From assembly GCA_046482325.1 (NCBI GenBank), contig JAWOFF010000107.1:1244-65243 (forward strand): a DNA stretch of 64,000 nucleotides, given 5' to 3'. Under the pieces are notes generated by a model, which saw only the letters and a program-made list of their open reading frames with translations, was not told where the DNA came from and did not search any database. The position numbers were made by a program, and so were the translations under genes. Below are positions 1,316 through 42,704 of this stretch, piece by piece (position 1 is the stretch's first letter; every line of letters begins with the position of its first letter). The stretch comes from Desulfosalsimonadaceae bacterium (GTDB taxonomy: Bacteria > Desulfobacterota > Desulfobacteria > Desulfobacterales > Desulfosalsimonadaceae).

Positions 1316-3385
1316 ATGGAATGGATATTGAATAATATCCCGCTGAGTTGCACAATTGTTGGATTTATTGGAATTGCGTATTCGCTTATTGTGGCCGGAG
1401 CTATTAAAAAAGCTCCGAAAGGCGATCCCAAAATGATCGAAATCGCCAATGCCATTGAGGAGGGCTCCATTGCCTACCTGAATCGGCAGATGAAAAGCAT
1501 GGCGATTGTCGGGATCATTATTTTCGTGCTAATTTTTCTGGGCCTGGGCGCAAAAACGGCCGTAGGCTTTTTGGTGGGTGCAGTAGCCTCCTATCTCGCC
1601 GGCTATATCGGCATGCGGGTCTCAGTGCTGGCAAATCTCCGGGTGGCCGAAGCCTGTAAAAAAGGGCTGGCAGCGGGCCTGAGCCTGGCCTTCAAAGGCG
1701 GCTCGGTTACCGGCATGCTGGTGGCGGGCCTTGCCCTTGCCTCCATCGCCGGCTTCTTTACCTACATGACCGCCAGCAGCCCGCAGGACATGCCGCTTGT
1801 TGAACAGGTAGTTCCCCTTGTTGCACTCGGCTTCGGCGGCAGTCTGGTCTCCATCTTTGCCAGGCTCGGGGGCGGCATTTTTACCAAAGGTGCCGACGTG
1901 GGCGCCGACCTGGTCGGCAAAGTTGAAGCCGGCATTCCCGAGGACGATCCCCGCAACCCGGCCACCATTGCTGACAATGTGGGCGATAACGTGGGCGATT
2001 GTGCCGGTATGGCAGCCGACCTTTTCGAGACATACGCGGTAACCGTTGTCGCAGCCATGCTGCTGGGAGCGCTGATCTTTGCAGAAAACACCATGGCAGT
2101 TCACTTTCCGCTGCTGCTGGGCGCGGTATCCATTATTGCCTCCATCATCGCCACTTTCTTTGTCCGGATGGGCAAAAGTGAATACATCATGGGCGCCCTG
2201 TACAAAGGAATGTTCGGAGCCGCCATTCTGGCAGCCATTGCATTCTACTTTGTAACAACAAGCATTATGACAGAAATGAACGGCATCCCGGCCATCAACC
2301 TGTTTTACTCTGCGCTGATCGGTCTGGTTTTGACCGTTATCATCGTTATTATCACCGAGTATTATACCGGCACATACAAACCGGTTAAAGGCATTGCAGA
2401 AGCCTCCACCACCGGCCACGGCACCAACATTATCGCTGGTCTTGCAGTAAGTCTGCAGTCCACCGCAGCCCCGGTGTTTGCAATCTGTATAGCTATCGGC
2501 CTTGCTTACGGATTTGCCGGACTCTACGGCATCGCCATTGCCACAGTGGCAATGCTGTCCATGACCGGTATGGTTATCGCCATTGACGCTTACGGCCCGA
2601 TCACCGACAATGCCGGCGGGATTGCCGAAATGGCGGAAATGGACGACTCCGTGCGCGCTGTCACCGACCCCCTCGACGCAGTCGGCAACACCACCAAGGC
2701 GGTTACCAAGGGCTATGCCATCGGCTCCGCCGGGCTCGCCGCACTGGTTCTGTTCGCCTCCTATACGCAGGAATTTGTCCTGCAAGCAGAAAAAGCAGCC
2801 GAGGAATCAGGCGGTCTTGCCGAAACGATCTCCTTTGATCTCTCCAATGTGGACGTTATCATCGGGCTCTTCCTCGGCGGACTGCTGCCTTACCTGTTCG
2901 GCTCCATGGCCATGCAGGCAGTGGGACGCGCCGGCAGCGCTGTTGTTGACGAAGTCCGCCGCCAGTTCCGCGAACTGCCGGGAATCATGGAAGGCACTGC
3001 CAAACCGGATTATCACACCTGTGTGGACATTGTCACCAAACACGCTCTCAAAGAAATGATGGTTCCCGCACTACTGCCGGTCGTTGCACCGATACTGGTC
3101 GGCTTCCTGCTGGGCAAAGTAGCGCTCGGCGGCCTTTTGATCGGCTCCATTATCACCGGTCTGTTTGTGGCCATTTCCATGACCACCGGCGGCGCCGCCT
3201 GGGATAACGCTAAAAAATACATTGAAGACGGCTTTTTCGGCGGCAAGGGAAGTGATGCACATAAAGCAGCTGTTACCGGCGATACAGTCGGCGACCCGTA
3301 CAAGGATACGGCAGGTCCGGCAATCAACCCCATGATCAAGATCCTCAATGTTGTGGCTCTGCTCATGGTGCCGTTTTTGATGTAA
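1316..3385 (+). CDS. hppA: membrane-bound proton-translocating pyrophosphatase, K+-independent type
   Basis: 689 aa and TM-rich, with [27 protein letters not shown] and [21 protein letters not shown] motifs. [10 protein letters not shown] carries Lys rather than Ala, the K+-independent signature. SD GGGAGGG lies upstream. Confidence 0.95.
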
Positions 3386-4080: not shown

Positions 4081-5106
4081 ATGAATGGCGGGAGGGACTT
4101 TACGTTCCAGTTCCATGCCGAAGCCGATGCAGGCAGGAGGCTGGATATCCTGACTGCCGAGCGACACCCTCAGTTGTCTCGCAGCACCGCAGCCCGCCTA
4201 ATCCGTGAGGGACGCATCCGCGTCAACGGCAAGCCGTGCAAGCCCGGCTATAAGCCTGCGCCAGGGGACAGGATAAGCGGTGAAATCTTCGAACCCGTCA
4301 AGGAGGCCCTCCCTCTTGAGGCCGAGGCCATCGATCTTGACGTCATCTTTGCGGATGCGCACTGCCTGGCTGTAAACAAGCCTCCTGCAATGGTTGTGCA
4401 TCCCTCCCCCGGACACACCGTCGGAACTTTTGCCGGCGCTCTGCTCTACCATTTTCCGGAAATCCAGGGGGTAGGCACCGCGGCAGAGCGGCCGGGAATT
4501 GTACACCGCCTGGACAAAGACACCTCCGGGCTTATCCTTGCTGCAAAAACCCCTTCCGCCTTTCAAAACCTGACTGAACAATTCAAAAAGCGCCGTATTG
4601 AAAAACACTATCTGGCCCTGACCTATGGACGGCCGCCGCAGGAGAGCGGACGCATTGATCTGCCCATAGGCCGCCACCGGGAGGACAGGAAAAAAATGTC
4701 CGCCAGAAGGCACACAAAGGCCCGGCACGCCTTAACCTTCTGGCGGCTTTGCTGTTTCTGGGAGGGGATCTCGCTTATAGAATACCGGATAGCAACCGGC
4801 CGTACCCATCAGATCCGGGTACACAGTTCCGCCATAGGCTGCCCCATTGTAGGCGACAGAGTATATGGCCCGAAAAAGCCTTCCAGGCTTTTGCACAACC
4901 CGAGACTCCGGAATGTTAGCCAGGCGGCGTCGCGCCAGATGCTGCACGCCTGGAAGCTGCGCTTTATGCACCCGGAAAGCGGAAGTCCGGTCTGTATCCA
5001 GGCGGAGCCGGCTGCGGATATGCAGTTGATACTGGAGAGGCTGCGTGAAGAGTCCGGCCGGGACTGCTTTACAAAAACAACGGTCATCGGGCCGGAGGAT
5101 CATTAG
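4081..5106 (+). CDS. rluD: RluA/RluD-family 23S rRNA pseudouridine synthase
   Basis: S4-like N-terminus (RLDILTAE...AARLIREGRIRVNGK) and catalytic GIVHRLDKDTSG. The start is set at ATG 4081, just after the carD stop, rather than the track start at 3940, which overlaps carD. Confidence 0.85.
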   Translation: MNGGRDFTFQFHAEADAGRRLDILTAERHPQLSRSTAARLIREGRIRVNGKPCKPGYKPAPGDRISGEIFEPVKEALPLEAEAIDLDVIFADAHCLAVNKPPAMVVHPSPGHTVGTFAGALLYHFPEIQGVGTAAERPGIVHRLDKDTSGLILAAKTPSAFQNLTEQFKKRRIEKHYLALTYGRPPQESGRIDLPIGRHREDRKKMSARRHTKARHALTFWRLCCFWEGISLIEYRIATGRTHQIRVHSSAIGCPIVGDRVYGPKKPSRLLHNPRLRNVSQAASRQMLHAWKLRFMHPESGSPVCIQAEPAADMQLILERLREESGRDCFTKTTVIGPEDH

Positions 5107-5132
5107 CCTGTCCCCTTAATAGAGGCCGGGCA

Positions 5133-5705
5133 TTATCCCTTGCGTCTTAGCGCCAGGGTACACCGCTTATCCTCTTTATCAAAGGTTAGAACGATCTCCT
5201 GGTCATCGCCCTTATTCTCCGCCAATTGCCTGTACCTACTCTTGATTCGCCTTTCGAACTCCTCGGGCGACTCCTGGTTCCCGCCTCCGAATTCATCCAG
5301 TTTCTTTTGCTGAAAATTCCAGAATGACCTCATTGAAGGGGAACTGGGGCCCCGGGGCTGTTCGGATTCCGGCTGTGATGAGGGCTCATTCAGGCCGGCT
5401 CCAAACTGTCGTCCCTGTCGATAGGCTGCCTCGGCGTTCTCCCAAAGCTGCTGCCAGGCCTTTTGATGATAATAGACCTTCCACTGCAGGTTATCCAACT
5501 GGTATTCAAGCTGCTTGGTGGAAACTACGGGGGGAACCCTGTAGCGCTGAATTTTTTCGACAAGTTCCATATGGCGGGGGTGCGGTTTGTTCCGCCGATC
5601 TGCCAGATAAGCTCTCAGCTTGCCATCCATGGCTTCCACCTGCCTCTCCAGCTCAGTAAGTTCTTTTTCCACCGCTGTTCGCCTTTGCTCTGTTGATTCA
5701 GCCAT
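5133..5705 (-). CDS. hypothetical protein with a coiled-coil N-terminus
   Basis: 190-aa ORF in an otherwise unoccupied region. Charged heptad-like N-terminus (EKELTELERQVEAMDGKL). I recognise no family. Confidence 0.55.
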   Translation of the reverse strand: MAESTEQRRTAVEKELTELERQVEAMDGKLRAYLADRRNKPHPRHMELVEKIQRYRVPPVVSTKQLEYQLDNLQWKVYYHQKAWQQLWENAEAAYRQGRQFGAGLNEPSSQPESEQPRGPSSPSMRSFWNFQQKKLDEFGGGNQESPEEFERRIKSRYRQLAENKGDDQEIVLTFDKEDKRCTLALRRKG

Positions 5706-5969
5706 AGCATCCAGCCCCTACGCATTTCGTATTTTTAGCCCATCAAATATTCATTAGAATACAAGGAGTTACCCAAGGCTGCGCCTATTTCCCTCTATCA
5801 GTTCCGGCTCAAATTGTAAAGCAGGGGCCTGGCCGGCCACTGGCACAAAAAAAGCGCGCCGTTTGCCGTAAAAGGTAAAAACAGACGCGCCTTGCAGAAG
5901 AGGATATGGACGGCAAAACCGGCTTTCCTGCCATTAATTCCGCAATAACGGATGTTGGGGAAAAAAGTA

Positions 5970-8042
5970 CTACGAAGCCATTACATCCGGATTGTAGCAA
6001 AGCCTGCAGCAATCCAGACAGCGATCAGCTTCGGAAAGAGCGCTTTGTTCGCTGATTACCAGATCTACCTCATCAAAGGTATGAATCCGCTCGGAAACAG
6101 GCAATTCGGGGGTTTGCACGCGCCGCCGGTCCCGTTTTACACCTTCCACCGAATCAAAAATGGTTTCCTGGATGTGTTTGTTCAAGATCGCCTTCGGCTC
6201 CGGAGTTACAGGCTTGTTTCGCAAAAACAGATTGATGGAGCGGGCAGCCTTGCGTCCCCCGCCGATGGCGTCAACAACAAGCGCCGGTCCGGTTGCGGCG
6301 TCACCCGCAGCAAAAATATAGGGCACATTGGTCTGATGGGTGGCGGGGTCCACCTCGAAAGTGTTCCAGCGGGTCATGGACAAATCATCCAGCCGGTCGC
6401 CCTTCCCACGGAATTCAGCCAGCGGCGCCTGGCCTATGGCCGTAATGATGGTTTCAACCTCCAGCACCGTCTCTGAGCCCTCAATGGGAACCGGCCGTCG
6501 CCGTCCACTGGCATCCGGCTCACCAAGTTCCATTTTTAAATACTCCAGTCCGCAGACCCTTTCCTGTTCATCGCCCATCACGCGGTTGGGAGACGCCAAA
6601 AAAATATACTCAATGCCCTCATGTTCAGCAGCCTCTATTTCCACGTCATTTGCGGGCATCTCATTTCGTGTGCGGCGATAAACCAGGTAAACCTTTTCAC
6701 AGCCCTTGCGCACGAGGGTTCTCGCACAGTCAATAGCCGTATTGCCGCCCCCGATAACAGCGGCGCGCCTGCCAACGGCAACGGACTCTTCATTGCCGAC
6801 CCGGGAAAGAAAGTCAATCCCTGTAAAGCATCCGGGCAGATTCTCTCCCGGGATCTTTAACTGATAATCGTTCCATGCTCCGATGCTGAAAAATACGGCG
6901 TCGAAACCTGCGGCAATCAGGGATCCAAATTCAAAATCGCGCCCAAGCCGGACGTTGGTGTGATGCTCAATGCCGGTGTTTAAGATCCCCTCGATCTCCC
7001 AGTCCAGGACTTTTTTGGGCAGACGGTATTCAGGAATCCCATAGCGCAGCATGCCTCCCAGCCGGGGCATAGCCTCGAATATGCCGGGATGATGCCCGAC
7101 CCTGCGCAGAAAATACGCACAGCTCAATCCTGCCGGTCCTCCGCCAATCACCGCCACCCGTTTTCCGGTATCCGGGGCGGTCTCAATAGGTATACGCCTG
7201 CCGGCGTTCATTTCATAGTCTGCGACAAAACGCTTGAGGTGATTGATGGCTACCGGCTCATCCTCAATGCCCCGGCGGCACCAGGACTCACAGGGATGGG
7301 GGCAAACCCTGCCGCAGGTCAGCAGAAGGGGATTTCGCTCCCGGATTGTATTGACTGCTTCTTCATACTCACCGGTTTTGATATGCTGAATATAACGGGG
7401 AATGTCAATTTCTGCGGGGCAGGTCTGCGCACAGGGAGCCACGGCATCCTCAGTTGTGTTTAAATGCAGCAGGCGCTCGGACATGGTCCGCACCTTCAAA
7501 ATCGGCTTGGGACAGGCACGCTCACACGCTCCGCAGCCAACGCATTTCTCCTTGTTCACAACAGGATAGCCCTGCTCTCCCATCTTTATGGCATCAAAGG
7601 TGCAGGCCCGGATACAGTCGCCAAAACCCAGACAGCCGATCCAGCAATCCCTTTTGCCGCCGAACATGGCAGCTGCTGCTTTGCAGCTGTTTAGACCTTT
7701 ATAAAAAAACCGATCCGTAGCCCTGCTTCCGCCGGTGCAGTCATTATACGATTTCAGCGGCTCCGCGGATCCGGCTTCCAATCCCATAATCGCTGCGATT
7801 TCCGCCACATTTTCCGAACTGTTCAGTATACAGACCGAAGGAGGGGCTTCCCCTTTGACAATGGCCTCTGCAGCCGCGGCACAGCCGGTGTATCCGCATC
7901 CGCCGCAATTGGCGCCGGCCAGCAGACCTTCCACCTTGGCGATCCTCGGATCCTCATAGACATAGAATATGCGCGAAGCAAAACTCAGAGCCAATCCTAT
8001 AACAAGGCCGAGTCCCAGCGTAAAAAGTACAGATTCGAGCAC
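5970..8042 (-). CDS. rnfB: RnfB-like Fe-S subunit fused to a GltD/NfnB-like NAD(P)H-dependent FAD/Fe-S oxidoreductase
   Basis: 690 aa. It has an N-terminal TM helix, an RnfB-type CGGCGYTGC...C Fe-S domain and a ferredoxin domain (CVGCGACERACP), roughly nt 7475..8042. The rest is glutamate-synthase-small-chain-like: Cys-rich Fer4_20-like segment, VAVIGGGPAGLSCA (FAD) and AAVIGGGNTAIDCA (NAD(P)H). It is the last gene of the rnf operon. Confidence 0.85.
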   Translation of the reverse strand: MLESVLFTLGLGLVIGLALSFASRIFYVYEDPRIAKVEGLLAGANCGGCGYTGCAAAAEAIVKGEAPPSVCILNSSENVAEIAAIMGLEAGSAEPLKSYNDCTGGSRATDRFFYKGLNSCKAAAAMFGGKRDCWIGCLGFGDCIRACTFDAIKMGEQGYPVVNKEKCVGCGACERACPKPILKVRTMSERLLHLNTTEDAVAPCAQTCPAEIDIPRYIQHIKTGEYEEAVNTIRERNPLLLTCGRVCPHPCESWCRRGIEDEPVAINHLKRFVADYEMNAGRRIPIETAPDTGKRVAVIGGGPAGLSCAYFLRRVGHHPGIFEAMPRLGGMLRYGIPEYRLPKKVLDWEIEGILNTGIEHHTNVRLGRDFEFGSLIAAGFDAVFFSIGAWNDYQLKIPGENLPGCFTGIDFLSRVGNEESVAVGRRAAVIGGGNTAIDCARTLVRKGCEKVYLVYRRTRNEMPANDVEIEAAEHEGIEYIFLASPNRVMGDEQERVCGLEYLKMELGEPDASGRRRPVPIEGSETVLEVETIITAIGQAPLAEFRGKGDRLDDLSMTRWNTFEVDPATHQTNVPYIFAAGDAATGPALVVDAIGGGRKAARSINLFLRNKPVTPEPKAILNKHIQETIFDSVEGVKRDRRRVQTPELPVSERIHTFDEVDLVISEQSALSEADRCLDCCRLCYNPDVMAS

Positions 8043-8137
8043 GACTTTCCTCTTAATTGTTCAGAATTCCAGATTAGGCAGCGGAAGATGCCCCGCGCCT
8101 TGCAGCCCAGGCCAGTGGAGCAGGATGCACCCCGGCT

Positions 8138-8713
8138 TTATACCATCCCCTTGAAAGCCATAAATGCCAGGGATAAAACGCCTGCTGTTACCAGACCGAT
8201 AGAGGTATCCTGCAATGGTTTCGGCACCCTTGCCAGGATAATCCGTTCCCGCACACCGGCAAAGAGAATAAGGGCCAGCCCAAAGCCAAGGGCATAGGCG
8301 ATAGAAGCGATAAGCGCCTGCAGAAAGGTGTATTCCTCCTGCACGTTTATCAGGCAGACACCCATAACTGCGCAGTTTGTGGTAATAAGAGGCAGAAAAA
8401 TGCCAAGCCCTGCATACAGGGCGGGAATGCTTTTCTTGAGAAACATTTCAACAAATTGCACCAGCGATGCAATGACCAGAATAAAAGCAATGGTGCGCAA
8501 AAATTCAATGCCCAGGGTAGCCAGAAAACAGGTGTTTATCACCCAGGTGATAACACCGGCCATGACCATAACAAAGAGGACCGCCATGGCCATGCCCACG
8601 GCCGTCTCCATTTTTTTGGAAGTGCCCAGGAAAGGACAGTTCCCCAGATACTGCGCCAGCACAATGTTGTTTATAAAGATACAACTGATGACCAGAACAA
8701 AGATATCGCCCAT
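8138..8713 (-). CDS. rnfA: Rnf complex subunit A
   Basis: 191 aa, collinear with E. coli RsxA (FINNIVLAQYLGNCPFLG, GIFLPLITTNCAVMG, AGVLSLAFMAFKG). Confidence 0.95.
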   Translation of the reverse strand: MGDIFVLVISCIFINNIVLAQYLGNCPFLGTSKKMETAVGMAMAVLFVMVMAGVITWVINTCFLATLGIEFLRTIAFILVIASLVQFVEMFLKKSIPALYAGLGIFLPLITTNCAVMGVCLINVQEEYTFLQALIASIAYALGFGLALILFAGVRERIILARVPKPLQDTSIGLVTAGVLSLAFMAFKGMV

Positions 8714-8749
8714 TATTTAACTCCTGTGTGAACTTCCACCGCGCCGGCC

Positions 8750-9343
8750 TTAACGGCTTCCGGCCAGATTCATCAGGCAGAGCATGAGCCCGAGGCACAC
8801 AAATGCCCCGGGTGCTTCCACCATGAAGGTAAGAGGCTCAAATGAAGGACCGAAAACTTCCATCCCGTAAAACGTTCCTTCGCCCAGCACTTCACGCACA
8901 GCCCCCAGCGCTCCGAGCGAAAGGGTGAACCCGATGCCGATGCCGAGGCCATCTGCCACCGCGTACACCGGCTTGTGCTTGGAGGCAAAGGCCTCCGCCC
9001 GGCCGAGGACTACGCAATTAACAACAATCAGCGGAATAAAAATTCCCAGCTGCAGGTATAGGGGATAGGCAAAAGCCTGCATCAGCAGTTCCACCACTGT
9101 AACAAAAGTAGCAATGATGATGATATAGCAGGCGATACGGATTTTGGGTGGAATCACGTTGCGAAGCAGCGAAACCAGGAGGTTGGAGCAGACCAGCACA
9201 AAGGTCGTCGCAACACCCATTCCCAGACCGTTGGGTACGGATTTGGTCACCGCAAGGACCGGGCAGAGCCCGAGGACCAGACGAAAGGGTGGAATCTCCT
9301 CCCATAAGCCTTTGGTAAATTCCTGAGCCAGTGTCTTTGCCAT
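8750..9343 (-). CDS. rnfE: Rnf complex subunit E
   Basis: 197 aa with LVLGLCPVLAVT and GIFIPLIVVNCVVLGRAEAFA motifs. Confidence 0.95.
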   Translation of the reverse strand: MAKTLAQEFTKGLWEEIPPFRLVLGLCPVLAVTKSVPNGLGMGVATTFVLVCSNLLVSLLRNVIPPKIRIACYIIIIATFVTVVELLMQAFAYPLYLQLGIFIPLIVVNCVVLGRAEAFASKHKPVYAVADGLGIGIGFTLSLGALGAVREVLGEGTFYGMEVFGPSFEPLTFMVEAPGAFVCLGLMLCLMNLAGSR

Positions 9344-9358
9344 AATCTTTATTTCCTT

Positions 9359-9952
9359 CTATCCGGAAAAAGTTGACAACTGTTTTTGAATCCGGGGTTT
9401 TACCTTATTGTAAAGATTCCCGGCTCTTCTGACGGCCGTACATACAGCCCGGGAGGTAATAGTGGCACCGGCCATGGGGATTATATCTCCGCCATCCTTT
9501 TTCACATTCGTCTCAGTGCCGATTTCCACTCCCTGGAACTGCTTTTTGAAATCTTCATGGGTCTCTACCCGGGCGCCCACGCCGGGCGTTTCATTATGGG
9601 TGGTAACGCTGACGCCATGGATTTTACCGGTTCTCACGTTTACGGCAACCATTGTTCCCACATCGCCCCCGTAGCCGCTGCCTTTGGTTTCAAAGGCCAC
9701 CACTCCGGGCTCTCCCTCATAAACGCCCACAAAAAAATTTCTTTCAGTTCCGTCAACCTGGAGCGAGAACCGATCCTGAATCGGATTATTGGAAGCGCCT
9801 TCCAAAATCTTCTTGATGGCCGGCCCCTTGACGAATTTGAGAACCTGGCTGTCAATACGATCCTGCGTGTTGTTCCGGATGGCAGCCAGCAATCCACCGG
9901 AGAAGCTGCTCAGAATTGTCAGCACAAGAACCATTTTTACCATTTCACGCAT
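9359..9952 (-). CDS. rnfG: Rnf complex subunit G (FMN-binding, periplasmic)
   Basis: 197 aa with an N-terminal anchor and an FMN_bind-type domain. It retains the flavinylation motif in AGATITSRAV. Confidence 0.9.
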   Translation of the reverse strand: MREMVKMVLVLTILSSFSGGLLAAIRNNTQDRIDSQVLKFVKGPAIKKILEGASNNPIQDRFSLQVDGTERNFFVGVYEGEPGVVAFETKGSGYGGDVGTMVAVNVRTGKIHGVSVTTHNETPGVGARVETHEDFKKQFQGVEIGTETNVKKDGGDIIPMAGATITSRAVCTAVRRAGNLYNKVKPRIQKQLSTFSG

Positions 9953-10913
9953 AATTGATCACCTTTCGCAAGGTCTTGGGTCGGATTTTATCAATTATCG
10001 GGTTGATAAGATTAATCAACAGAATGGCAAACACGACCCCGTCGATATGAGTGCCAATATTACGGATAAGAACCGTCAAAAAACCGCCAAGCGCTCCATA
10101 CAGCAACATGGGGATAAAGTTTACCGGTGATGAAGAATCATCTGTGGCCAGAAAGAAAGCGCCCAGCAGGGAATATCCGGTCAGAACATGAAAGCCGGCC
10201 CCGGCATATACCTGCGGGTTGGCCTGATGAAAAACAAAAGCTGTAATAAACATCCCGGCGATAAAGGAAAGCGCGATTTCCCAGCGGATATAGCCCCGGA
10301 GCATAAGATAAATCCCGCCGATAATCAACCCCAGCGCACAAGAGGTTCCAATGCCGCCCACCTGCCGGCCGAGCAGCAAATCGGCGGCAGAGAACCCTTC
10401 CACAGCGGCGGATCCGAATGATTTGGCCAGCAATAATGGAAAAACGGGATTGAAATCAAACTGGTAATTGACAAGTGCTTTATTAAAATCGAGGAAGCCG
10501 GGCCAGGAAATCAGCAGTACCGCAAATGCAAAGGCCACCGGATTAAAGGGATTTCCCCCCAGTCCGCCGAAAATCTGCTTGCCAATGACCACCATAAAAA
10601 GAGTCCCTACAACAACCACCCACCAGGGAGTAACAGCGGGCAGCATCATGGCAAACAGCATACCCAGCAGTGCGGCATTTCCATCGCCTATGGAGACCGG
10701 CCGCCGGGTTAAAAAATTCATTATGAGCTCCCAGATCATGGCCGAGGCGATCGAGAGCGCAACCAATGCCAGGGCGGCAAGACCGTATTGAAACAGGCCC
10801 GGGATTACCGCCAGCAGGGTGGCCAACAGGATATTGTAATTTTTGAGCGAAATCTGACTTCCGCTGTGCCAGAACGGGGCATGGGATACAGTCAGTTTGA
10901 TGGACTCAGGCAT
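9945..10913 (-). CDS. rnfD: Rnf complex subunit D
   Basis: 322 aa, collinear with RsxD/NqrB (PWWVVVVGTLFMVVIGKQIFGGLGGNPFNP, GAFFLATD). It overlaps rnfC and rnfG by 8 nt each. Confidence 0.9.
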   Translation of the reverse strand: MPESIKLTVSHAPFWHSGSQISLKNYNILLATLLAVIPGLFQYGLAALALVALSIASAMIWELIMNFLTRRPVSIGDGNAALLGMLFAMMLPAVTPWWVVVVGTLFMVVIGKQIFGGLGGNPFNPVAFAFAVLLISWPGFLDFNKALVNYQFDFNPVFPLLLAKSFGSAAVEGFSAADLLLGRQVGGIGTSCALGLIIGGIYLMLRGYIRWEIALSFIAGMFITAFVFHQANPQVYAGAGFHVLTGYSLLGAFFLATDDSSSPVNFIPMLLYGALGGFLTVLIRNIGTHIDGVVFAILLINLINPIIDKIRPKTLRKVINYA

Positions 10914-12189
10914 TGCTCTCCTCCGCTTTCATGCGCTCCAGCATGTGTTTGCCAAGTTTGATATGCTGAAAAATGGGAATCCGGGACTCACAGACAAAAG
11001 CGCACAGTCCGCATTCGATGCAGGCATCCAGCTCGGCCTGGGCGGCCGCCTGTTCATACTGCTCCGCCTCCAGCAGCCGGACCAGTATATTCACCGGGAT
11101 ATTAACAGGACATACCCTAACGCATTCACCGCAATTTATACAGGCCGTGCCCGAAGATTCCGGTATCCGGGAACTGTCCTGAATCATGATCACATCAGTA
11201 TCAGCTGCAACCGGCTGTTCTATGGTATAGACCGCGGTTCCGGTCATGGGGCCGCCGAAAATAAGCCGGTCGCCTTCCTCCAGAGTTTCGTTGAAGGTGT
11301 CCAGTATATTTTTAACCGGGGTTCCCATCGGTACGGAAACCATCCGTCTGCTGCCGTCTTTGGAGATAAAAGTCGCCATCTTGGTCAGGGGAAGCCGGCC
11401 TGTATTAAAGGCAGCCCCGATAGCGGATACCGCCTCCGCATTAAAAAAGGCCACATCCGCATTTCTCCCCTCGCCTCCGGCCTTTATCTCATCAGAGAGA
11501 ATGTGGCGGACAATCAGTTCCGGGTTTGCGGTCGGATATTCCGAATCCACTGTTTTTACGCCCGCGCCGGCGGCTCCGGCCACCTGTACCAGATGCTCGG
11601 GAACGGCCAGTATAACATTCTGAATGCCCGTCATTTTTCTGAGGGCATCGATGCCGGTTTTAATCGATTCAATGCTGGTTTTGACAAAATACTGGTTTGT
11701 AATGGCCAGAAGATCGTGTTCGGCTCCGAGAACCACAATCGCCTTAATCCGCCGGCCGGGATCAAAAAAGGGAGAGAAATCAGGTTTTCCGGGAAGTCCT
11801 TTCAGGAAACAGGCTGCTGCCTCAAGGCTGGGGTTCTTGCTCTGCTTCTTGAACTCTTCGTCAGGGACCTGCTCGGACTCCGGATCCACAGTAATGCTGA
11901 CTGCAGTCATCTTCTTCTGCATCATGCCAATAAAAGGCCTGACATCTGTGATTTTTCCGGATCTGCTGGCCAGGCCGTAATCGTCCGAATCCGCCGTGGC
12001 CCGGAGGCACTGGCCGCTTTTTACGTGTTCGCCCGCTGCAACTGCAAGATCCTGGCTATGCTCCAGCGGAGCGTCCAGCAAAAGTTGAATTTTTTCAGAT
12101 ACCGGGACATCAGCGGGCTCGGCGTCGCTGTCCACAATGGCCTCGTATGTCAGCCTCGGTTTGATAAAGCCAAAAAATGATCTTTTCAT
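10906..12189 (-). CDS. rnfC: RnfC-like subunit (N-terminal barrel, SLBB-like region, 2x[4Fe-4S]) lacking a recognisable NADH/FMN glycine motif
   Basis: 427 aa with CINCGECVRVCP and CIECGLCAFVCE near the C-terminus and an RnfC_N-like start. GLPGKPDFSP stands where GLGGAGFPT is expected. Confidence 0.8.
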   Translation of the reverse strand: MKRSFFGFIKPRLTYEAIVDSDAEPADVPVSEKIQLLLDAPLEHSQDLAVAAGEHVKSGQCLRATADSDDYGLASRSGKITDVRPFIGMMQKKMTAVSITVDPESEQVPDEEFKKQSKNPSLEAAACFLKGLPGKPDFSPFFDPGRRIKAIVVLGAEHDLLAITNQYFVKTSIESIKTGIDALRKMTGIQNVILAVPEHLVQVAGAAGAGVKTVDSEYPTANPELIVRHILSDEIKAGGEGRNADVAFFNAEAVSAIGAAFNTGRLPLTKMATFISKDGSRRMVSVPMGTPVKNILDTFNETLEEGDRLIFGGPMTGTAVYTIEQPVAADTDVIMIQDSSRIPESSGTACINCGECVRVCPVNIPVNILVRLLEAEQYEQAAAQAELDACIECGLCAFVCESRIPIFQHIKLGKHMLERMKAEESNA

Positions 12190-12262
12190 GGATCAAAACC
12201 TTTACCGGTCTTTCCTGGTTGTAAAGTGTCAAGTATACGCGATCATTCCGCCACCGCTCAGC

Positions 12263-12898
12263 TTAATAGGCGTGGCACTGACTGCAGTCGGATTTTGCGG
12301 GCCCCGCCCCAAAATCCTCATGACAGCCCGCGCACTGGGTATGAAAGGCCTCGGTGCGATTCCGGGGAACATGGCATCCCGAGCACCGGCTCCGATCAGG
12401 CACGACACCATAGTCCTCGTGGCATCCTATACACTGCCTGTGGAAGGCTTCCTTTCTGCCGGGCATCCCGCCATTGCCCATGCCCTCCTGATGGCAGGCA
12501 GTGCAGGCCTGGGGCTGCTGAGAATCCCCCTCCTCGTAGTTGTGGTGGCAGTCGCTGCAATACAGGCCGTACTGCCGGGCATGGGCCTCATGGCTAAACA
12601 TCCCTTTTTCGCCCAGGGCCGGCTTATACTTGCTTTCTGCACCATGGCAGCTACCGCACTCCCCCGGCTTCTCTTCGCCGGCCTCCTGAAAGGCATGATG
12701 GCAATCCTCACAGTACAATCCATAGGAGTCGCTGTGGGTCTGGTGGGCGAACAATACGTCGTCGCCTGTAGCTGCAAACATTTTACGGACCGGAACTTCC
12801 GGGCTTTTCGAGGGAAACGCGGCATAGCCCAGAATACCGACGACAAGGCAGACAGCTAATAAACCGTACGCCAAATTCCGTTCGTTTTTCGAAGTCAT
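12263..12898 (-). CDS. membrane-anchored octahaem c-type cytochrome (cytochrome c3-like)
   Basis: 211 aa with an N-terminal hydrophobic anchor. Eight CxxCH motifs counted by hand (CEDCH, CGSCH, CSDCH, CTACH, CIGCH, CSGCH, CAGCH, CSQCH). It is the first gene of the rnf operon. Confidence 0.9.
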   Translation of the reverse strand: MTSKNERNLAYGLLAVCLVVGILGYAAFPSKSPEVPVRKMFAATGDDVLFAHQTHSDSYGLYCEDCHHAFQEAGEEKPGECGSCHGAESKYKPALGEKGMFSHEAHARQYGLYCSDCHHNYEEGDSQQPQACTACHQEGMGNGGMPGRKEAFHRQCIGCHEDYGVVPDRSRCSGCHVPRNRTEAFHTQCAGCHEDFGAGPAKSDCSQCHAY

Positions 12899-13212
12899 GC
12901 GATTTAATTCCTTTCCACAACCGAGTACCTGCCGCCTCCAACCCCTTTTCAGCCGGGAGGGGCAGCCTTTGCCTCCCTCCGCACCTTAAAATCCGGGGGC
13001 TTTTTTTCAAATAAAGGCTTGTTCCGAACAGCCGAACTGCCTGCCCGGCTTGCAAAAGAACGTAAAGACTTTTTCGTATTAAGTTACAAGAGTTTTGTCA
13101 AGGACTTTATAGAAGGCCGGGATGCGTGAATCGCTACGGCGTCGCAATTGCCGCACCGCTCATGCGCCACACCCATGCGCTCGGCTTCTTTTGCGGAACA
13201 GGGGCATTCGCC

Positions 13213-14463
13213 CTAGTCCGCTTTTCTGCGCAGAAATGTCGGTATATCCAGATCCGTGTCATAGTTGAAATTGCTTCCGCCTGCATCCTCCCCTCCGGCT
13301 TTTTTGGCCTGCTTGCCGCAAGATCCGCCCCTGGATCCCGAAGAAGACCCGCTTTTCTGCTTTTTGGCCTCATTGCGGATGACTGTTGGAATATCGTAAT
13401 CATCCATTTTCATGTCCTCCTCGGTCAGGTCCCGGACCTTGCCCCTTGGCTGAAAGCCCTCTGCGGGGAACTTATGGACCTTGTCCTTAACCTCCTGCAT
13501 ATTCCGATCGCCTATGCCGGTGGCAATAACGGTGACCCGCATTTCATCTCCAAGGGAGTCGTCCACCGCAGTACCCCATATCAGTTCTACATCATCATTG
13601 TTGATCTCGTTATAAATGCGGTCCGATGCCTCCATGGTCTCCTCCATGGTAAGATCCGAATTGCAGGTGATATTCATCAGCACCCCGCGGGCACCAACAA
13701 TCGAATTATCCTCAAGAAGGGGGTGGGAAATGGCCCGTTCCGCCGCTTCAAGGGCCCGGTTCTCTCCGCTTGCCACGCCGATACCCATAATGGCCATCCC
13801 CGCCTTGCTCATGGTGGTTTTAACGTCCGCAAAATCCAGGTTGATCAGGCCCGGATTCATAATCAGATCGGTAATTCCCTTTACACAATGATGCAGGATT
13901 TCATCGGCTTTTTTAAACATTTCAATAAGGGTTGCCTTTTTTGAGGCAAGCCCGCGCAGCCGGTCATTGGGAATTGTGATAACTGTATCCGCCACCTCCC
14001 GCAGTTTGGAGATGCCCTCATCTGCATAGCGGCTTCGCTTTTTTGCCTCAAAGGTAAAGGGTTTGGTCACCACTGCCACCGTAAGTGCGCCCATCTCTTT
14101 GCAAAGCTCCGCGATTACCGGAGCCGCCCCGGTGCCGGTGCCGCCGCCGAGACCGGCTGCTATAAAGACCATGTGGCTGTCCGCCAATGCCTCCCGCAGA
14201 AGCTCCGTTGATTCCACGGCCGCCTCCCTGCCGACATTCGGATCGGCCCCGGCTCCCAGACCCTGAGTCAGTTCCTCGCCAAGCTGAATCTTGGTGTTGG
14301 CCTTGGCTTTGGCAAGCGCCTGGGCATCCGTATTGGCGGCTATGAACTTGACACCCTCCAGATTGGCGTCGATCATATTGTCAATAGCGTTGTTACCGCC
14401 GCCGCCGACTCCGATCACCTTGATTTTGGCTGAATTGTTGTTTTCCACATAGGTAAAATTCAT
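13213..14463 (-). CDS. ftsZ: cell division GTPase FtsZ
   Basis: GVGGGGNNAIDNM and GGGTGTGAAPVIA motifs, with a C-terminal DLDIPTFLRRKAD peptide. The start is set at ATG 14463 (MNFTYVE), preceded by AAGGAGG, rather than the track start at 14496. Confidence 0.95.
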   Translation of the reverse strand: MNFTYVENNNSAKIKVIGVGGGGNNAIDNMIDANLEGVKFIAANTDAQALAKAKANTKIQLGEELTQGLGAGADPNVGREAAVESTELLREALADSHMVFIAAGLGGGTGTGAAPVIAELCKEMGALTVAVVTKPFTFEAKKRSRYADEGISKLREVADTVITIPNDRLRGLASKKATLIEMFKKADEILHHCVKGITDLIMNPGLINLDFADVKTTMSKAGMAIMGIGVASGENRALEAAERAISHPLLEDNSIVGARGVLMNITCNSDLTMEETMEASDRIYNEINNDDVELIWGTAVDDSLGDEMRVTVIATGIGDRNMQEVKDKVHKFPAEGFQPRGKVRDLTEEDMKMDDYDIPTVIRNEAKKQKSGSSSGSRGGSCGKQAKKAGGEDAGGSNFNYDTDLDIPTFLRRKAD

Positions 14464-14523
14464 GGCGTCACCTCCTTGTATGTTTCGGGATAGCAATATT
14501 TGCCTTAATCTTCACTGTTGCTT

Positions 14524-15750
14524 CTATATGATTTCTTTCACCCAGGCTTTCATGCGCTTCATGATCCGGTTGAAAATATTGTTGTCGCGAATCCGGAACT
14601 TCTTTTTCTCCTGATTGCGGGCCCCATATATGACAAGCCCCACGCCCGTGGCGTACATGGGACTGTTTACCACATCCACCAGGCCGCTCACCCCCTGCGG
14701 CCGGCCGATGCGCACGGGCTGCTCGAAAACAGATTCGGCAATTTCGGATATGCCTTCCAGAAGCGAGGCTCCTCCGGTCAGAACAACCCCGGAGGCAATG
14801 GCATTTTTCAGGCCCGCCTGCATCAGCTCCCGCTTGACCAGCGTAAATATCTCTTCAACACGCGGTTCCAGAATCTCCGCCAGGATCTGCCGCGGCAACT
14901 TGCGCCCTCCGCGTCCGGAACGATCTGAAATCTCTATGGTTTCGTCGTTTCCGATCCTGTCCGCAATACAGGTACCGTACTTGAGCTTAATGCGTTCGGC
15001 TTCGGCCATCGGGGTCCGCAGTCCCACGGAGATGTCGTTTGTCATGTTGTTGCCGCCAAGCGACAGCACAAAGGTATGTTTTACATTGTTAGCGGAAAAC
15101 ACCGCCAAATCCGTAGTGCCGCCCCCAATGTCGATCAGACCGGCCCCAACCTCTTTTTCCTCAGGGCTCAGCACCGATTCGCAGGAGGCAATCGGTTCAA
15201 GTATGATATCGCAGACATCCAGACCTGCCTTATTTGCGCACTTGACAATATTTTGCGCCGATGTCACGGCGCCGGTCACAATATGGATGCGCGCTTCCAG
15301 GCGCACGCCCGCCATGCCCACGGGGTTGTTAATTCCCCCCTCCCCGTCGACTATAAACTCCTGGGGAAGCACGTGAATGACCTCCCGGTCCATGGGAATG
15401 GCAACAGCCCGGGCCGCTTCAATCACACGGTTCACATCGGCCTGGGTAATTTCCTCGCCCTTTATTGCAATGACGCCGTTGCTGTTAAATCCTGTCACGT
15501 GTCCGCAGGCGATGCCGGCATAGACGGAGGAAATTTCGCATCCCGCCATGAGTTCGGCCTCCTCGACCGCTTTTTTTATCGATTCCACGGTGGATTCGAT
15601 ATTGACGACAACGCCCTTGCGCAGTCCGACAGATGGATGGCTCCCGATTCCGATAATATTTACCGTGTCGGCTTCCAGCTCGGCAACCACGGCACAGATC
15701 TTCGTGGTACCGATATCGAGTCCGACAACAAGCTCCTCCTTTGCCTTCAC
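14524..15750 (-). CDS. ftsA: cell division protein FtsA
   Basis: 408 aa, actin-like ATPase (VVGLDIGTTKICAVV, DIGGGTTD), located between ftsQ and ftsZ. Confidence 0.95.
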   Translation of the reverse strand: MKAKEELVVGLDIGTTKICAVVAELEADTVNIIGIGSHPSVGLRKGVVVNIESTVESIKKAVEEAELMAGCEISSVYAGIACGHVTGFNSNGVIAIKGEEITQADVNRVIEAARAVAIPMDREVIHVLPQEFIVDGEGGINNPVGMAGVRLEARIHIVTGAVTSAQNIVKCANKAGLDVCDIILEPIASCESVLSPEEKEVGAGLIDIGGGTTDLAVFSANNVKHTFVLSLGGNNMTNDISVGLRTPMAEAERIKLKYGTCIADRIGNDETIEISDRSGRGGRKLPRQILAEILEPRVEEIFTLVKRELMQAGLKNAIASGVVLTGGASLLEGISEIAESVFEQPVRIGRPQGVSGLVDVVNSPMYATGVGLVIYGARNQEKKKFRIRDNNIFNRIMKRMKAWVKEII

Positions 15751-15751
15751 C

Positions 15752-16624
15752 TTAAACCTCCTTGTTGGCTTCGCTGCTTTTCTGTTCTGCCGGGGTTGCT
15801 ACAATGCGTTTCGGGTTTTGTGCATTCAGGTATTCAAGGGGCTGCAACTCCCTGTTTGCCTCTATATAGGCAAAAATCCGCCGGATCCGCTGAAGCTTTT
15901 GTTCATAGCCGTCGTATCCCAGATGAATTCTCTCTGCAGGCCCGTTGCTCCAAACGGTAAGTCCCATTTCCCGGTCCACGGCAATCTCATGCACCGCAAG
16001 GCCCCGCGGGCCGGCCCCGTCTTCCAGGCATTGCAGAAGACTCATGACAGCCGAGGAAACCTTTGTCCGTGATCCATCTGGCTTTTTCCAGTCCGCGCAC
16101 TCAAGCCCTGAAATAATCGGCAAGCCCGTCATTTCAGGGGGGGCCGCTTCTTTAAAGATTGACCCCCTGGAATCAATAAGAAAAAACCGCCCCACATCCA
16201 GAACGGCCAGGGGCCTGTGCTCACGCACAGAAACGCTCAGGCGCGAAGGCAGCTCCCGCCTGACAGAGGCAGAACGAATCCAGGGATATGCAACGAGCCG
16301 CTTTCTGACCATGGAAAGGTTTACTGCAATAATATTGACCTCCCCTTCCAGGCCAGCCGTATCAAGCACCATTTCCCTGGAGAGCCTTTCCATGCCGCGG
16401 ACATTGATGGACTCGGCATTGAAATAGTCGCACTGGATCAGGGCGTCATGGAAAAAAATAAAGGCCGCTGCCAGCAAAAAAAAACCCGCCATGGCAAGCA
16501 GGGCCGTACCCCCCGCCTTAAGAGCCGGCCAAAAAGAGACTCTTTGCCTGGCGCTTCCTTTTTTCAGACGGTTTTTCCGGTTGTTTTTATTCACCGACAA
16601 TTCGCACCTCCGGCTCCAGCGCAA
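15752..16624 (-). CDS. ftsQ: cell division protein FtsQ
   Basis: 290 aa, basic N-terminus, one TM helix, and a POTRA-like region (INVRGMERLSREMVL). The dcw position supports the call. The exact start is uncertain. Confidence 0.8.
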   Translation of the reverse strand: MRWSRRCELSVNKNNRKNRLKKGSARQRVSFWPALKAGGTALLAMAGFFLLAAAFIFFHDALIQCDYFNAESINVRGMERLSREMVLDTAGLEGEVNIIAVNLSMVRKRLVAYPWIRSASVRRELPSRLSVSVREHRPLAVLDVGRFFLIDSRGSIFKEAAPPEMTGLPIISGLECADWKKPDGSRTKVSSAVMSLLQCLEDGAGPRGLAVHEIAVDREMGLTVWSNGPAERIHLGYDGYEQKLQRIRRIFAYIEANRELQPLEYLNAQNPKRIVATPAEQKSSEANKEV

Positions 16625-17543
16625 CGAAAAATTTCCTGTACACCGCTTCCCGGACAGTTTCCATAAGCCGCAGGATATCCGCAGCCGTCGCCCCGCCCCG
16701 GTTTACAATAAAGTTGGCATGTTTCTCCGACACCTGCGCCCCGCCGACCTCCATACCCTTCATCCCGGCCTTTTCTATTAGCCTGCCGGCAGGCTCGCCG
16801 TCCTGCGGATTTTTAAAAAAGCAACCTGCACTGGCAGCACCCAGCGGCTGACGCTCTTTGCGCTCTGTGAGCAGGGTCTTTGCCTCCTGCTCCAGCTCCA
16901 GGCGATCCCCCGGCCTCACGGCAAAGCAGCCCTCCACAATAACCGGCGGGTGCAGCGCATCCCCTTCGAAGCCCGGTATTTCAAGCCTTCTATAGGAAAA
17001 GCGCAGTGCGGAGCGGGGAAAACGTTCTACACTACCGTCTCCGAACAAAACCCACGCCTCTGCCAGCACATCGGCAACTGCTCCGCCGGCTGCACCGGCG
17101 TTCATAACCATCGCACCTCCCACGGTGCCGGGGATCCCGGCGGCAAAATTTAAGCCGGCAAGCCCGTTTTCCCTTGCAAAGCGGCAAAGGCGGCCAAGGT
17201 TCTCCCCTGCCATGGCCCGTATCAAGCGGGCGGACCGCTCCGGTCCGGACTCCAGCAAAAGCCCCTTCAGAGCCCGCCCGGTATCGATAACCACCCCTCT
17301 TATGCCGCGGTCTCTTACCAGGAGGTTGGAGCCGCCGCCGATCAGGGTGTAGGGTGCGCCTTCCGCAATCAGCCACCGGACAAGGCCGAAAAAATCCTCC
17401 TGGTCACAGGGGCTTACAAAAATATCCGCGGGGCCTCCCACCCGGAGCCAGGTATGGGAGGCCATGGGTTCGTCAAAAAGGACCCTGCCCCTTACCTGCT
17501 CTTTTAAAGCGCTGCAGAATGTGAGACTGCATTCCATAAGCAT
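16587..17543 (-). CDS. murB: UDP-N-acetylenolpyruvoylglucosamine reductase
   Basis: FAD-binding MurB sequence (HTWLRVGGPADIF, LIGGGSNLLV, and a C-terminus with GAQVSEKHANFIVN). I prefer ATG 17543, which is 5 nt after the murC stop, to the track's TTG at 17600 inside murC. Confidence 0.9.
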   Translation of the reverse strand: MLMECSLTFCSALKEQVRGRVLFDEPMASHTWLRVGGPADIFVSPCDQEDFFGLVRWLIAEGAPYTLIGGGSNLLVRDRGIRGVVIDTGRALKGLLLESGPERSARLIRAMAGENLGRLCRFARENGLAGLNFAAGIPGTVGGAMVMNAGAAGGAVADVLAEAWVLFGDGSVERFPRSALRFSYRRLEIPGFEGDALHPPVIVEGCFAVRPGDRLELEQEAKTLLTERKERQPLGAASAGCFFKNPQDGEPAGRLIEKAGMKGMEVGGAQVSEKHANFIVNRGGATAADILRLMETVREAVYRKFFVALEPEVRIVGE

Positions 17544-17548
17544 TTGTA

Positions 17549-18931: not shown

Positions 18932-18942
18932 AAACCTCTCCG

Positions 18943-22632: not shown

Positions 22633-22640
22633 TTGCCAGC

Positions 22641-23720: not shown

Positions 23721-23722
23721 AA

Positions 23723-28460: not shown

Positions 28461-28786
28461 GGCAGCACCACCATTTGTTCCGGCTCAGGGGTTCTCAGAT
28501 TAAACTGCCGGGCCGCCGCCCTGCTCAGGCTCTGGGGGGCAGTCAGCCTGGCCAGCTCGACCTGCAGGCTTTTCTGCATTTCCAGGAGCTCCTCCTGCCG
28601 CTTCTCGGCTGCGGTGATTTCATAACCGGTACGGATGCACTGTACCCCGCACCAGGTGTGAAAAAAAAACTCGACAAGAAAAATCAGGAGGAGCAGCAGA
28701 AACATCCGGACGAGCCCGGGGCTCAAGCGGGTGGATGGGGATTTTTTGTTTGTTTTCAGATTGCCCGCCACAGCCATGCCCCCCAT
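28457..28786 (-). CDS. ftsL: FtsL-like cell division protein
   Basis: 109 aa, single TM helix followed by a coiled-coil segment, located between rsmH and ftsI. Confidence 0.75.
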   Translation of the reverse strand: MGGMAVAGNLKTNKKSPSTRLSPGLVRMFLLLLLIFLVEFFFHTWCGVQCIRTGYEITAAEKRQEELLEMQKSLQVELARLTAPQSLSRAAARQFNLRTPEPEQMVVLP

Positions 28787-28789
28787 TGA

Positions 28790-33653: not shown

Positions 33654-33654
33654 G

Positions 33655-42640: not shown

Positions 42641-42704
42641 ACACTTATGCACTAGTAATAAATTATTCCTATATCTGAACCAAACAAGCCGGGAGGGCGA
42701 GCAC

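Follow-up and report, generated by a model that had tools for sequence, protein, structure and literature searches.

An Rnf2-type operon of a Desulfosalsimonadaceae bacterium with a predicted NAD(P)H module on RnfB, an RnfD without the covalent-FMN threonine and an octahaem cytochrome

The Desulfobacteraceae, which are credited with oxidising a large share of the organic carbon in marine sediments, hold in their core genome a variant of the Rnf complex, Rnf2, that is abundant and constitutive in six strains (PMC11887813). Rnf2 has been described as having an RnfB of about 700 residues with an NAD-binding domain, an RnfC without the NADH/flavin mononucleotide (FMN) domain, and a cytochrome c3 encoded in the cluster (PMC5109826, 2016; PMC11887813, 2025). 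For the original description, Dörries et al. (2016; PMC5109826) cite the 2016 Proteomics paper on Desulfobacula toluolica Tol2 (Wöhlbrand et al.), and the domain differences and the cluster cytochrome c3 are given in the supplementary text and fig. S18 of the later paper (PMC11887813, Sci Adv). Desulfococcus multivorans and Desulfobacterium autotrophicum have the canonical Rnf1 alongside Rnf2 and express both, and their rnf2 cluster encodes a cytochrome (PMC5109826). The Rabus group proposed that electrons pass from Rnf2 to the cytochrome and on to Qrc, and the published texts still assume that ferredoxin interacts with the complex (PMC5109826, PMC11887813). Rnf2 is a leading candidate for the step by which electrons of NAD(P)H and ferredoxin enter the membrane on their way to sulfate reduction. 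Here we describe a seven-gene rnf operon at positions 5970-12898 (minus strand) of a 64,000-nucleotide stretch, hereafter the window, from a Desulfosalsimonadaceae bacterium (contig JAWOFF010000107.1, positions 1,244 to 65,243), which on its gene content and domain composition is a member of this Rnf2, or Tol2-type, Rnf of Desulfobacterales.

Canonical Rnf is represented by the complexes of Acetobacterium woodii (9eri), Clostridium tetanomorphum (7zc6) and Azotobacter vinelandii (8ahx). With these the window operon shares six homologous subunits, the RnfA and RnfE cysteines, the flavinylated motif of RnfG, the RnfC fold with two [4Fe-4S] clusters, the N-terminal RnfB clusters and the riboflavin ligands of RnfD. 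However, it is without the FMN/NADH site of RnfC and without the flavinylation threonine of RnfD, its RnfB carries a flavoprotein module in place of the distal polyferredoxin, and a cytochrome gene is added. In the A. woodii complex, FMN-D, bound covalently to T156 of RnfD, links the periplasmic FMN-G to the RnfD riboflavin and thence to RnfC; the riboflavin ligands are N123 and D249; and the ion passes with the electron through the [2Fe-2S] site of RnfA/E, with RnfD only carrying electrons (PMC11889175).

Seven uninterrupted minus-strand open reading frames (ORFs) fill positions 5970-12898 in the order cytochrome, rnfC, rnfD, rnfG, rnfE, rnfA and rnfB fusion, with intergenic gaps of 73, 15, 36 and 95 nt and two 8-nt overlaps, one between rnfC and rnfD and the other between rnfD and rnfG. 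The six subunits C, D, G, E, A and B are encoded together, as the gene set of an Rnf complex, and for every subunit except RnfC the curated NCBIfam cut-offs were reached in profile searches. Judged by this gene arrangement, the six-subunit Rnf plus cytochrome is a genuine seven-gene operon. Every feature by which the literature recognises Rnf2 was found, namely an RnfB of about 700 residues with an NAD-binding part, an RnfC without the FMN/NADH (Complex1_51K) and SLBB domains, a c3-type cytochrome in the cluster, here an octahaem class III protein encoded 73 nt upstream of rnfC, and a host within the Desulfobacterales (Desulfobacteraceae sensu lato); the gene order cyt-rnfCDGEAB is shared as well. 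The host assignment follows from the nearest loci, which are Desulfobacterales metagenome-assembled genomes (MAGs), and from an RnfC at NCBI that is 100% identical, comes from a Desulfosalsimonadaceae MAG and is annotated as '4Fe-4S dicluster domain-containing protein'. The haem number is unlike that of the published examples, as the window cytochrome has 8 haems in 211 aa, whereas the published ones are small and c3-type (for example, 15 kDa in D. multivorans).

A preliminary description of this DNA, made before any database search, had pictured a seven-gene minus-strand operon with short gaps and two 8-nt overlaps, headed by an octahaem cytochrome, with an RnfC devoid of the NADH/FMN glycine motif and an RnfB fused to a complete GltD/Nfn-type FAD/NAD(P)H module. 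All of these were borne out, with every ORF found at its coordinates, the cytochrome as the first gene with eight CxxCH motifs, the RnfC profile scores below their cut-offs and its loop replaced, and the module recognised both by Fer4_20 and Pyr_redox_2 and by alignment to solved chains. Its suggestion that the combination had not been described fell, since the combination, including the cytochrome/Qrc proposal, is already in PMC5109826 (2016) and PMC11887813 (2025). The architecture and the electron-path hypothesis are therefore both already published and are not a discovery; what is added here is the loss of the RnfD threonine and the octahaem cytochrome of the window copy.

The rnfB fusion (5970..8042, minus strand) encodes 690 aa. 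Its RnfB part (about aa 1-195; 7458..8042, minus strand) comprises a transmembrane helix, the PF04060 Fe-S domain and one 2x[4Fe-4S] ferredoxin-like domain, and it matches residues 7-195 of the C. tetanomorphum chain 7zc6_B and residues 13-190 of the A. woodii chain 9eri_B; the fusion scores 80.3 bits against TIGR01944 (cut-off 68.7), and all 14 cysteines of the RnfB part are 100% conserved. The remainder (about aa 196-690; 5970..7457, minus strand) is an NfnL/GltD-type module with the Fer4_20 cysteines, a flavin adenine dinucleotide (FAD) fold, an NAD(P)H fold and a C-terminal RCLDCC, in which Pfam places Fer4_20 and Pyr_redox_2 at fusion residues 202-595. The motifs VIGGGPAGL for FAD and VIGGGNTAIDC...VYRRTRNEMPA for NAD(P)H are present, as are both [4Fe-4S] cysteine sets, including the permuted RCLxC, and the module cysteines are invariant or nearly so in 81 sequences (C679 98%). 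By sequence, the pyridine-nucleotide site has thus moved to RnfB by fusion with an NfnL/GltD-type module holding FAD and 2x[4Fe-4S].

The best solved relative of the module is the NfnL-like domain of NfnA in NfnABC/StnC (9bov_A, 438 bits; also 9n5u_A and 8oh5_C), followed by NfnL of NfnSL (4ylf_B, 5jca_L) and then GltD. About 485 residues align to NfnA and NfnL, with the FAD and NADPH folds, the Fe-S cysteines and, in NfnA, the C-terminal RCLxC in common, although in NfnABC the module sits on a formate-dehydrogenase-like scaffold and in the window on a membrane-anchored RnfB. The last 40 residues of the fusion (…RCLDCCRLCYNPD) align to the N-terminus of NfnL, which by this alignment is a circular permutation common to NfnA/StnC. 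In NfnABC the NfnL-like domain binds NADPH next to FAD and hands electrons on singly to a chain of Fe-S clusters (PMC11829005). The loop VYRRTRNEMPA at the nucleotide site is near-identical to YRRT[ER]xEMPA of the NADPH-dependent NfnL/NfnA chains, and because of this resemblance NADPH is probably a likelier donor than NADH. Flavin-based bifurcation at the fused FAD was considered and appears unlikely, because in NfnA of NfnABC, the closest relative, electrons simply enter at this FAD (PMC11829005), and because the fused module has neither a partner of the NfnS, NfnB or NfnC kind nor a second acceptor.

RnfC (10906..12189, minus strand; 427 aa) has the RnfC fold and 2x[4Fe-4S] without an FMN/NADH site. 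Its scores stay below the cut-offs for Complex1_51K (Pfam, 17.6 against 31.2 bits), RnfC_N (20.5 against 25.6 bits) and TIGR01945 rnfC (169 against 246 bits), and the profile search gave no SLBB match in it. Within the altered region (11707..11802, minus strand), KGLPGKPDF...LGAEHDLL replaces GxGGAxFP...ECEPY: in alignments to the RnfC chains of C. tetanomorphum (7zc6_C) and A. vinelandii (8ahx_C), the Gly-rich loop GMGGATFP/GLGGAIFP becomes LPGKPDF, and AECEPY/SECEPY (then LT) becomes AEHDLL (AEHDLLAI); the A. woodii chain 9eri_C aligns only from residue 150 and covers the second motif alone. An intact but divergent NADH site was rejected, as both the Gly-rich loop and ECEPY are absent from the alignments. 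By contrast with this pocket, the two CxxCxxCxxxC motifs (10990..11142, minus strand) are kept, with C350/353/356/360 and C390/393/396/400 conserved at 100% in 68 sequences. An AlphaFold2 model of RnfC (pLDDT 87, pTM 0.86) gave in Foldseek template-modelling (TM) scores of 0.73-0.78 to RnfC chains and, second, 0.63-0.68 to full-length NqrA chains; this superposition and the retained cysteine motifs indicate that the RnfC fold and Fe-S domain are kept but the nucleotide/flavin pocket is not.

The same loop replacement occurs in the RnfCs of 67 near loci and, among 120 database RnfC homologues, also in the most distant 36 (at most 51% identical), those inspected. The replaced loop is itself conserved as LPGxPxF in the near loci, which suggests remodelling rather than decay. 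Weak precomputed PF01512 matches appear in some RnfC homologues, and unmarked Complex1_51K/SLBB matches in four of the more distant operons (L081-L083, L089); aligned residue by residue, however, every one of them is without the Gly-rich loop and ECEPY.

RnfD (9945..10913, minus strand; 322 aa) is the polytopic membrane subunit (PF03116, 279 bits; TIGR01946, 212.5 bits). In its segment FNPVFPLLL (10428..10454, minus strand), placed by translation and phmmer alignment, F158 sits at the position of A. woodii T156, TTATPL being replaced by NPVFPL in three independent phmmer alignments, for which A. woodii RnfD, C. tetanomorphum RnfD and Vibrio cholerae NqrB served as references; the NqrB counterpart of this threonine we take to be T236. 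None of the 71 aligned sequences has T or S at position 158, where F, Y, A, D or another residue stands. A resembling segment, EGFSAAD (compare DG.SGAT), was considered as an alternative flavinylation site and rejected because it aligned to a different, downstream segment of A. woodii RnfD and of NqrB and is not conserved in the clade. The riboflavin ligands are retained, as N124 and D258 (E in 67 of 71 relatives) align with N123/D249 of A. woodii, and riboflavin binding is predicted on this alignment.

Other cofactor sites are intact. RnfG (9359..9952, minus strand; 197 aa), the periplasmic FMN-binding subunit (PF04205; NF045876 RnfG_DVU2794, 243 bits, above the cut-off), keeps its flavinylation motif MAGATITSR (9449-9475, minus strand; from translation and alignment to RnfG chains) with T164 in AGATITS, and GAT.TS is at least 95% conserved. 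The cysteine pairs of the intramembrane [2Fe-2S] site, C26/C114 of RnfA (8138..8713, minus strand; 191 aa) and C27/C110 of RnfE (8750..9343, minus strand; 197 aa), are 100% conserved.

The loss of the RnfD threonine belongs with the other changes. A HMMER search with RnfD found 5806 matches among 1.84 billion representatives; the roughly 40 nearest 50%-identity representatives are mostly without D..[ST].ATPL, but nearly all more distant ones carry it. Eight motif-less RnfD representatives (37-45% identity) all lie in rnfCDGEA operons with a fused RnfB of 687-712 aa, and in all eight the RnfC is also without the Gly-rich loop, whereas a control operon with a threonine-containing RnfD has an RnfB of 174 aa and a full RnfC with GLGGAGFP and GECEPYLTCDD. 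At the locus level, we compared the best 80 of 400 stretches (L001-L080), plus distant operons up to L090. The fusion, the loss of the RnfC loop and the loss of the RnfD threonine co-occur in 67 of the 67 near loci with a full-length RnfC and in 8 of the 8 distant operons. Because of this eight-of-eight association and of the fused operons that have no cytochrome, we favour the view that the threonine loss tracks the fusion rather than the cytochrome, in a comparison among whose loci there was no Desulfovibrio (Rnf1 plus DhcA) locus. The RnfD/NqrB threonine is described as conserved in the flavinylation literature, where its loss is noted only in two-subunit Nqr/Rnf-like complexes (PMC10979944). 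The Rnf2 papers call the remaining subunits 'very similar' (PMC5109826, PMC11887813), and we did not find the threonine loss described in them, the original Proteomics 2016 paper being outside the scope.

Relatives of the fusion are widespread. At least 120 protein clusters of 66-93% identity cover its full length, all with PF04060, PF14691 and PF07992, and 400 stretches in contigs of one genome per species encode a relative. Across the relatives, little or no variation is seen at any cofactor cysteine of RnfB, RnfC, RnfA or RnfE. Each near locus with enough flank has cyt-rnfCDGEA upstream of the fused rnfB, except that two Desulfobacterales MAGs (L062, L068) have the fused rnfB about 2 kb upstream of cyt-rnfCDGEA and not at the end of the operon.

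The first gene of the operon (12263..12898, minus strand) encodes the octahaem c-type cytochrome of 211 aa, with eight CxxCH motifs between residues 63 and 209 and matches to the class III models Cytochrom_CIII, Cytochrome_C7 and c3_2. At its N-terminus a basic stretch precedes a hydrophobic helix, a putative membrane anchor or signal peptide that all homologues share. This helix and the P.EPVR.MF segment after it are kept in homologues with 4, 5, 6 or 8 haems, the haem count going with lineage: 4 (about 121 aa) in Desulfobacter, Desulfobacula and Desulfobacterium, 5-6 elsewhere, and 8 (about 211 aa) in the window clade. Tetrahaem homologues align with gaps over residues 1-176 of the octahaem protein. 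An origin by tandem duplication of a tetrahaem c3 was not supported, the two halves matching at E 0.007 with 18% identity.

In the near loci, rnfC is preceded by a cytochrome gene wherever the flank is long enough. In the deep-branching operons with the same changes in RnfB, RnfC and RnfD the picture differs, as 5 of 8 have no cytochrome gene adjoining rnfC, so that the adjacent cytochrome is frequent but not universal. Of the three features whose co-occurrence the preliminary description had proposed to survey, the fusion and the motif-less RnfC were seen together throughout, but not always with the cytochrome. The operons without it are L081, L082, L083, L089 and L090; in L082 and L083, genes for multihaem cytochromes of 536-598 aa are found one to two genes downstream. 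In L081, ApbE immediately follows rnfB, and genes of the RseC family lie close to rnfB in L081 and L082.

Based on these features, we propose, at about even chances, that Rnf2 carries electrons from NAD(P)H to a periplasmic cytochrome. NADPH, or less likely NADH, would reduce the FAD of the fused module. Single electrons would then travel by the module's own pair of clusters and those of RnfB to the intramembrane [2Fe-2S] of RnfA/E, the site at which Na+ (or H+) would be moved outward. The electrons would go on to the covalent FMN of the periplasmic RnfG, from there to the membrane-anchored multihaem cytochrome, the operon-first gene product being the nearest plausible acceptor, and then along a route of periplasmic cytochrome c3, Qrc and menaquinone to sulfate reduction; the machine should be reversible. 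Since in A. woodii ion transfer takes place at RnfA/E and RnfD is an electron carrier only, pumping need not depend on FMN-D, and with an RnfD lacking the covalent-FMN threonine an exit from RnfG alone becomes likelier, if the cytochrome is the partner. In the preliminary description, electrons were to run from NAD(P)H to the cytochrome by way of RnfG/D; the domain logic of that path is plausible and matches the proposal of the Rabus group, but the passage through RnfD is less likely in a subunit without the threonine. As to the retained RnfC clusters and riboflavin site of RnfD, they may offer electrons a second way out or in on the cytoplasmic side, or be left over as structural elements. 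A precedent for the exit from RnfG to a cytochrome is the Rnf of Methanosarcina acetivorans, which does not use NAD(P) and whose RnfG was proposed to feed a co-transcribed multihaem cytochrome (PMC4023990). The sequence evidence narrows the tests, in that the donor would probably be NADPH, ion transfer would be expected at RnfA/E, RnfG would be the sole covalently flavinylated subunit, and the partner to expect would be a periplasmic cytochrome or something docking on the RnfC clusters.

Several points weigh against this electron path to the cytochrome. The eight invariant Fe-S cysteines of RnfC and the retained RnfD riboflavin ligands argue that electrons may still reach RnfC, and RnfD might hold FMN without a covalent bond. 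Between NAD(P)H and low-potential c3-type haems there is little driving force, and the cytochrome was rarely detected in published proteomics (PMC5109826). With 5 of 8 deep-branching operons lacking the adjoining gene, the cytochrome is not an obligatory acceptor for the whole clade. The preference for NADPH over NADH comes from loop similarity only, the seven genes form a putative transcription unit, and we found no biochemistry or enzymology of any Rnf2 member in the literature.

A stronger form of the proposal, which we hold tentatively and consider doubtful, is that the U-shaped path is cut and Rnf2 works as a one-way, ion-coupled exporter of NADPH electrons through RnfG-FMN to periplasmic multihaem cytochromes, because the covalent FMN of RnfD and the FMN/NADH site of RnfC are lost and an NADPH flavoprotein is gained on RnfB. 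If true, such a one-way Rnf2 would be a third functional class of the Rnf/Nqr superfamily, with the input logic of NQR re-invented independently, and a 'complex I equivalent' feeding sulfate respiration in the dominant complete-oxidising sulfate reducers of marine habitats. The RnfD observation in any case sharpens a testable hypothesis for an ecologically important enzyme.

The retained RnfC clusters also lead to a different function, in which the NADP(H) pool at RnfB is coupled along an intact U-path to ferredoxin, flavodoxin or another cytoplasmic carrier, which would dock at RnfB or, by way of the emptied FMN pocket, at the [4Fe-4S] clusters of RnfC, with the cytochrome as an optional periplasmic tap. 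The 100% conservation of the RnfC Fe-S cysteines together with the remodelled LPGxPxF loop, the kept riboflavin ligands, the five distant operons without an adjacent cytochrome and the ferredoxin interaction assumed in the published texts all agree with it. Nevertheless, we think it unlikely, as the RnfD threonine for covalent FMN, which in solved Rnf links RnfG to the riboflavin, is missing across the clade, and the NfnL-like module stands in place of the distal RnfB polyferredoxin domains, the presumed docking site for ferredoxin, of which the B8 part is mobile in A. woodii (PMC11889175). Moreover, with NADPH at RnfB and ferredoxin at RnfC, exergonic flow would presumably run in the ion-importing direction of canonical Rnf, so that electron flow from NADPH to the ferredoxin side would import ions and conserve no energy. 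The NAD(P)H-to-cytochrome machine might also run physiologically in reverse, electrons from periplasmic cytochromes (H2 or formate oxidation, or a syntrophic partner) and ion influx together producing NADPH. Rnf is established as reversible (PMC11889175), growth of Desulfovibrio alaskensis on H2 and formate depends on its cytochrome-linked rnf operon, which is induced during syntrophy (PMC4841214), and in one of the distant operons (L084) the gene for the small subunit of a [NiFe] hydrogenase follows two genes downstream. This direction seems to us distinctly improbable as the main one, since hydrogenases of Desulfobacteraceae are reportedly few or weakly expressed, yet Rnf2 is constitutive on organic substrates (PMC11887813), and since the Desulfovibrio system is of the other type (Rnf1).

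The operon might also encode a ferredoxin:NAD+ oxidoreductase of ordinary function that differs only in where its NAD site lies. The presence of all six subunits, the highly conserved membrane core and the database labels RnfB and RnfC speak for this reading. It is hard to reconcile with three cofactor sites changed together across a deep clade, with the expression of Rnf1 and Rnf2 side by side in D. multivorans and D. autotrophicum (PMC5109826), a sign that the two differ in function, and with a nucleotide loop resembling NADPH enzymes, and we give it very little weight. As for the artefact that the preliminary description itself had named, a falsely joined rnfB, or decaying pseudogenes, we found nothing in its favour and dismiss it as practically negligible. 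The fusion stands in the full-length relatives and species-level stretches counted above, with 80 of 80 fetched loci matching at least residues 20-686 of the 690 of the fusion at 63-93% identity; the frames are uninterrupted and the cysteines invariant, and the proteins were detected by proteomics in cultured relatives (PMC5109826, PMC11887813).

Among other known systems, the Na+-NQR of V. cholerae follows the same logic as the proposed NADPH-fed Rnf2, as NqrA, the RnfC homologue, is without an NADH site, and the oxidation of NAD(P)H falls to a flavoprotein module carried by a membrane-anchored subunit, from which electrons reach the [2Fe-2S] of the D/E (A/E) pair. However, NqrF, of the FNR-like kind, is no relative of the NfnL-type module, the Fe-S clusters that the window RnfC keeps are gone from NqrA, NqrB keeps the covalent FMN that the window RnfD has lost, and the acceptor of NQR is quinone. 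The NqrA model NF003761 gives 108 bits on RnfC against a cut-off of 450, the scores of all membrane subunits are much better with Rnf than with Nqr models, no Nqr model of NCBIfam comes near its cut-off, and the operon contains no NqrF-type protein, which places it outside Na+-NQR. The resemblance to NQR is best read from these comparisons as convergence. An evolutionary intermediate between Rnf and Na+-NQR was considered for Rnf2 and rejected, as its membrane subunits are Rnf-like and NqrB keeps the threonine.

The M. acetivorans Rnf (MmcA) likewise has an NAD(P)-independent RnfC, a co-transcribed multihaem cytochrome and Na+ coupling (PMC4023990; PMC12174285), but it is archaeal, takes electrons from ferredoxin at an ordinary polyferredoxin RnfB, has no NfnL-type module and delivers to methanophenazine. 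In the two-subunit Nqr/Rnf-like complexes (Méheust et al. 2021; PMC10979944), as in the window, the RnfD/NqrB homologue has lost the threonine and the RnfG/NqrC homologue keeps it, and a one-way flow from NAD(P)H to the extracytosolic side has been proposed (PMC10979944). These complexes differ in having an NAD-binding PF00175 domain fused to the RnfD-like protein and in being without RnfA, RnfE, RnfB and RnfC, and they are found mainly in Actinobacteria and the Candidate Phyla Radiation (CPR) (PMC10979944).

Around the operon, an ORF of 190 aa (5133-5705, minus strand) follows on the same strand 264 nt downstream of rnfB. It has no Pfam match, its position downstream of rnfB is kept in 22 related loci at 41-74% identity, and it may be part of the rnf transcription unit. 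RnfG needs an ApbE flavin transferase, and tblastn found no gene for one in the 64-kb window; in 12 of the 80 related loci, ApbE comes immediately behind the fused rnfB. When positions 5000-13600 were scanned for promoters and terminators, there were fewer matches than in shuffled controls and none at the operon borders. A 427-aa ORF antisense to rnfC (10897-12180, plus strand), of nearly identical span, is most likely a shadow ORF of the rnfC coding strand and no gene.

Directly upstream of the operon lies a putative division and cell-wall (dcw) cluster (13213-29728, minus strand), in which FtsZ was identified by Pfam and the rest is suggested by ORF order and an FtsA-like translation; ftsZ is upstream of the cytochrome gene in 24 related loci. 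The window further encodes a membrane pyrophosphatase (H_PPase, 875 bits; 1316-3385, plus strand) and Mrp/Mbh-type antiporter-like subunits (31759-36326, minus strand), and their presence in the same 64 kb fits an ion-gradient-centred bioenergetics. Finally, purH consists of two overlapping ORFs (41963-43955, plus strand), the first comprising MGS and the start of AICARFT and the second the remainder of AICARFT_IMPCHas, and a PurH1/PurH2 pair stands a few locus tags before the rnf genes in the list for D. toluolica Tol2 (PMC11887813, supplement).

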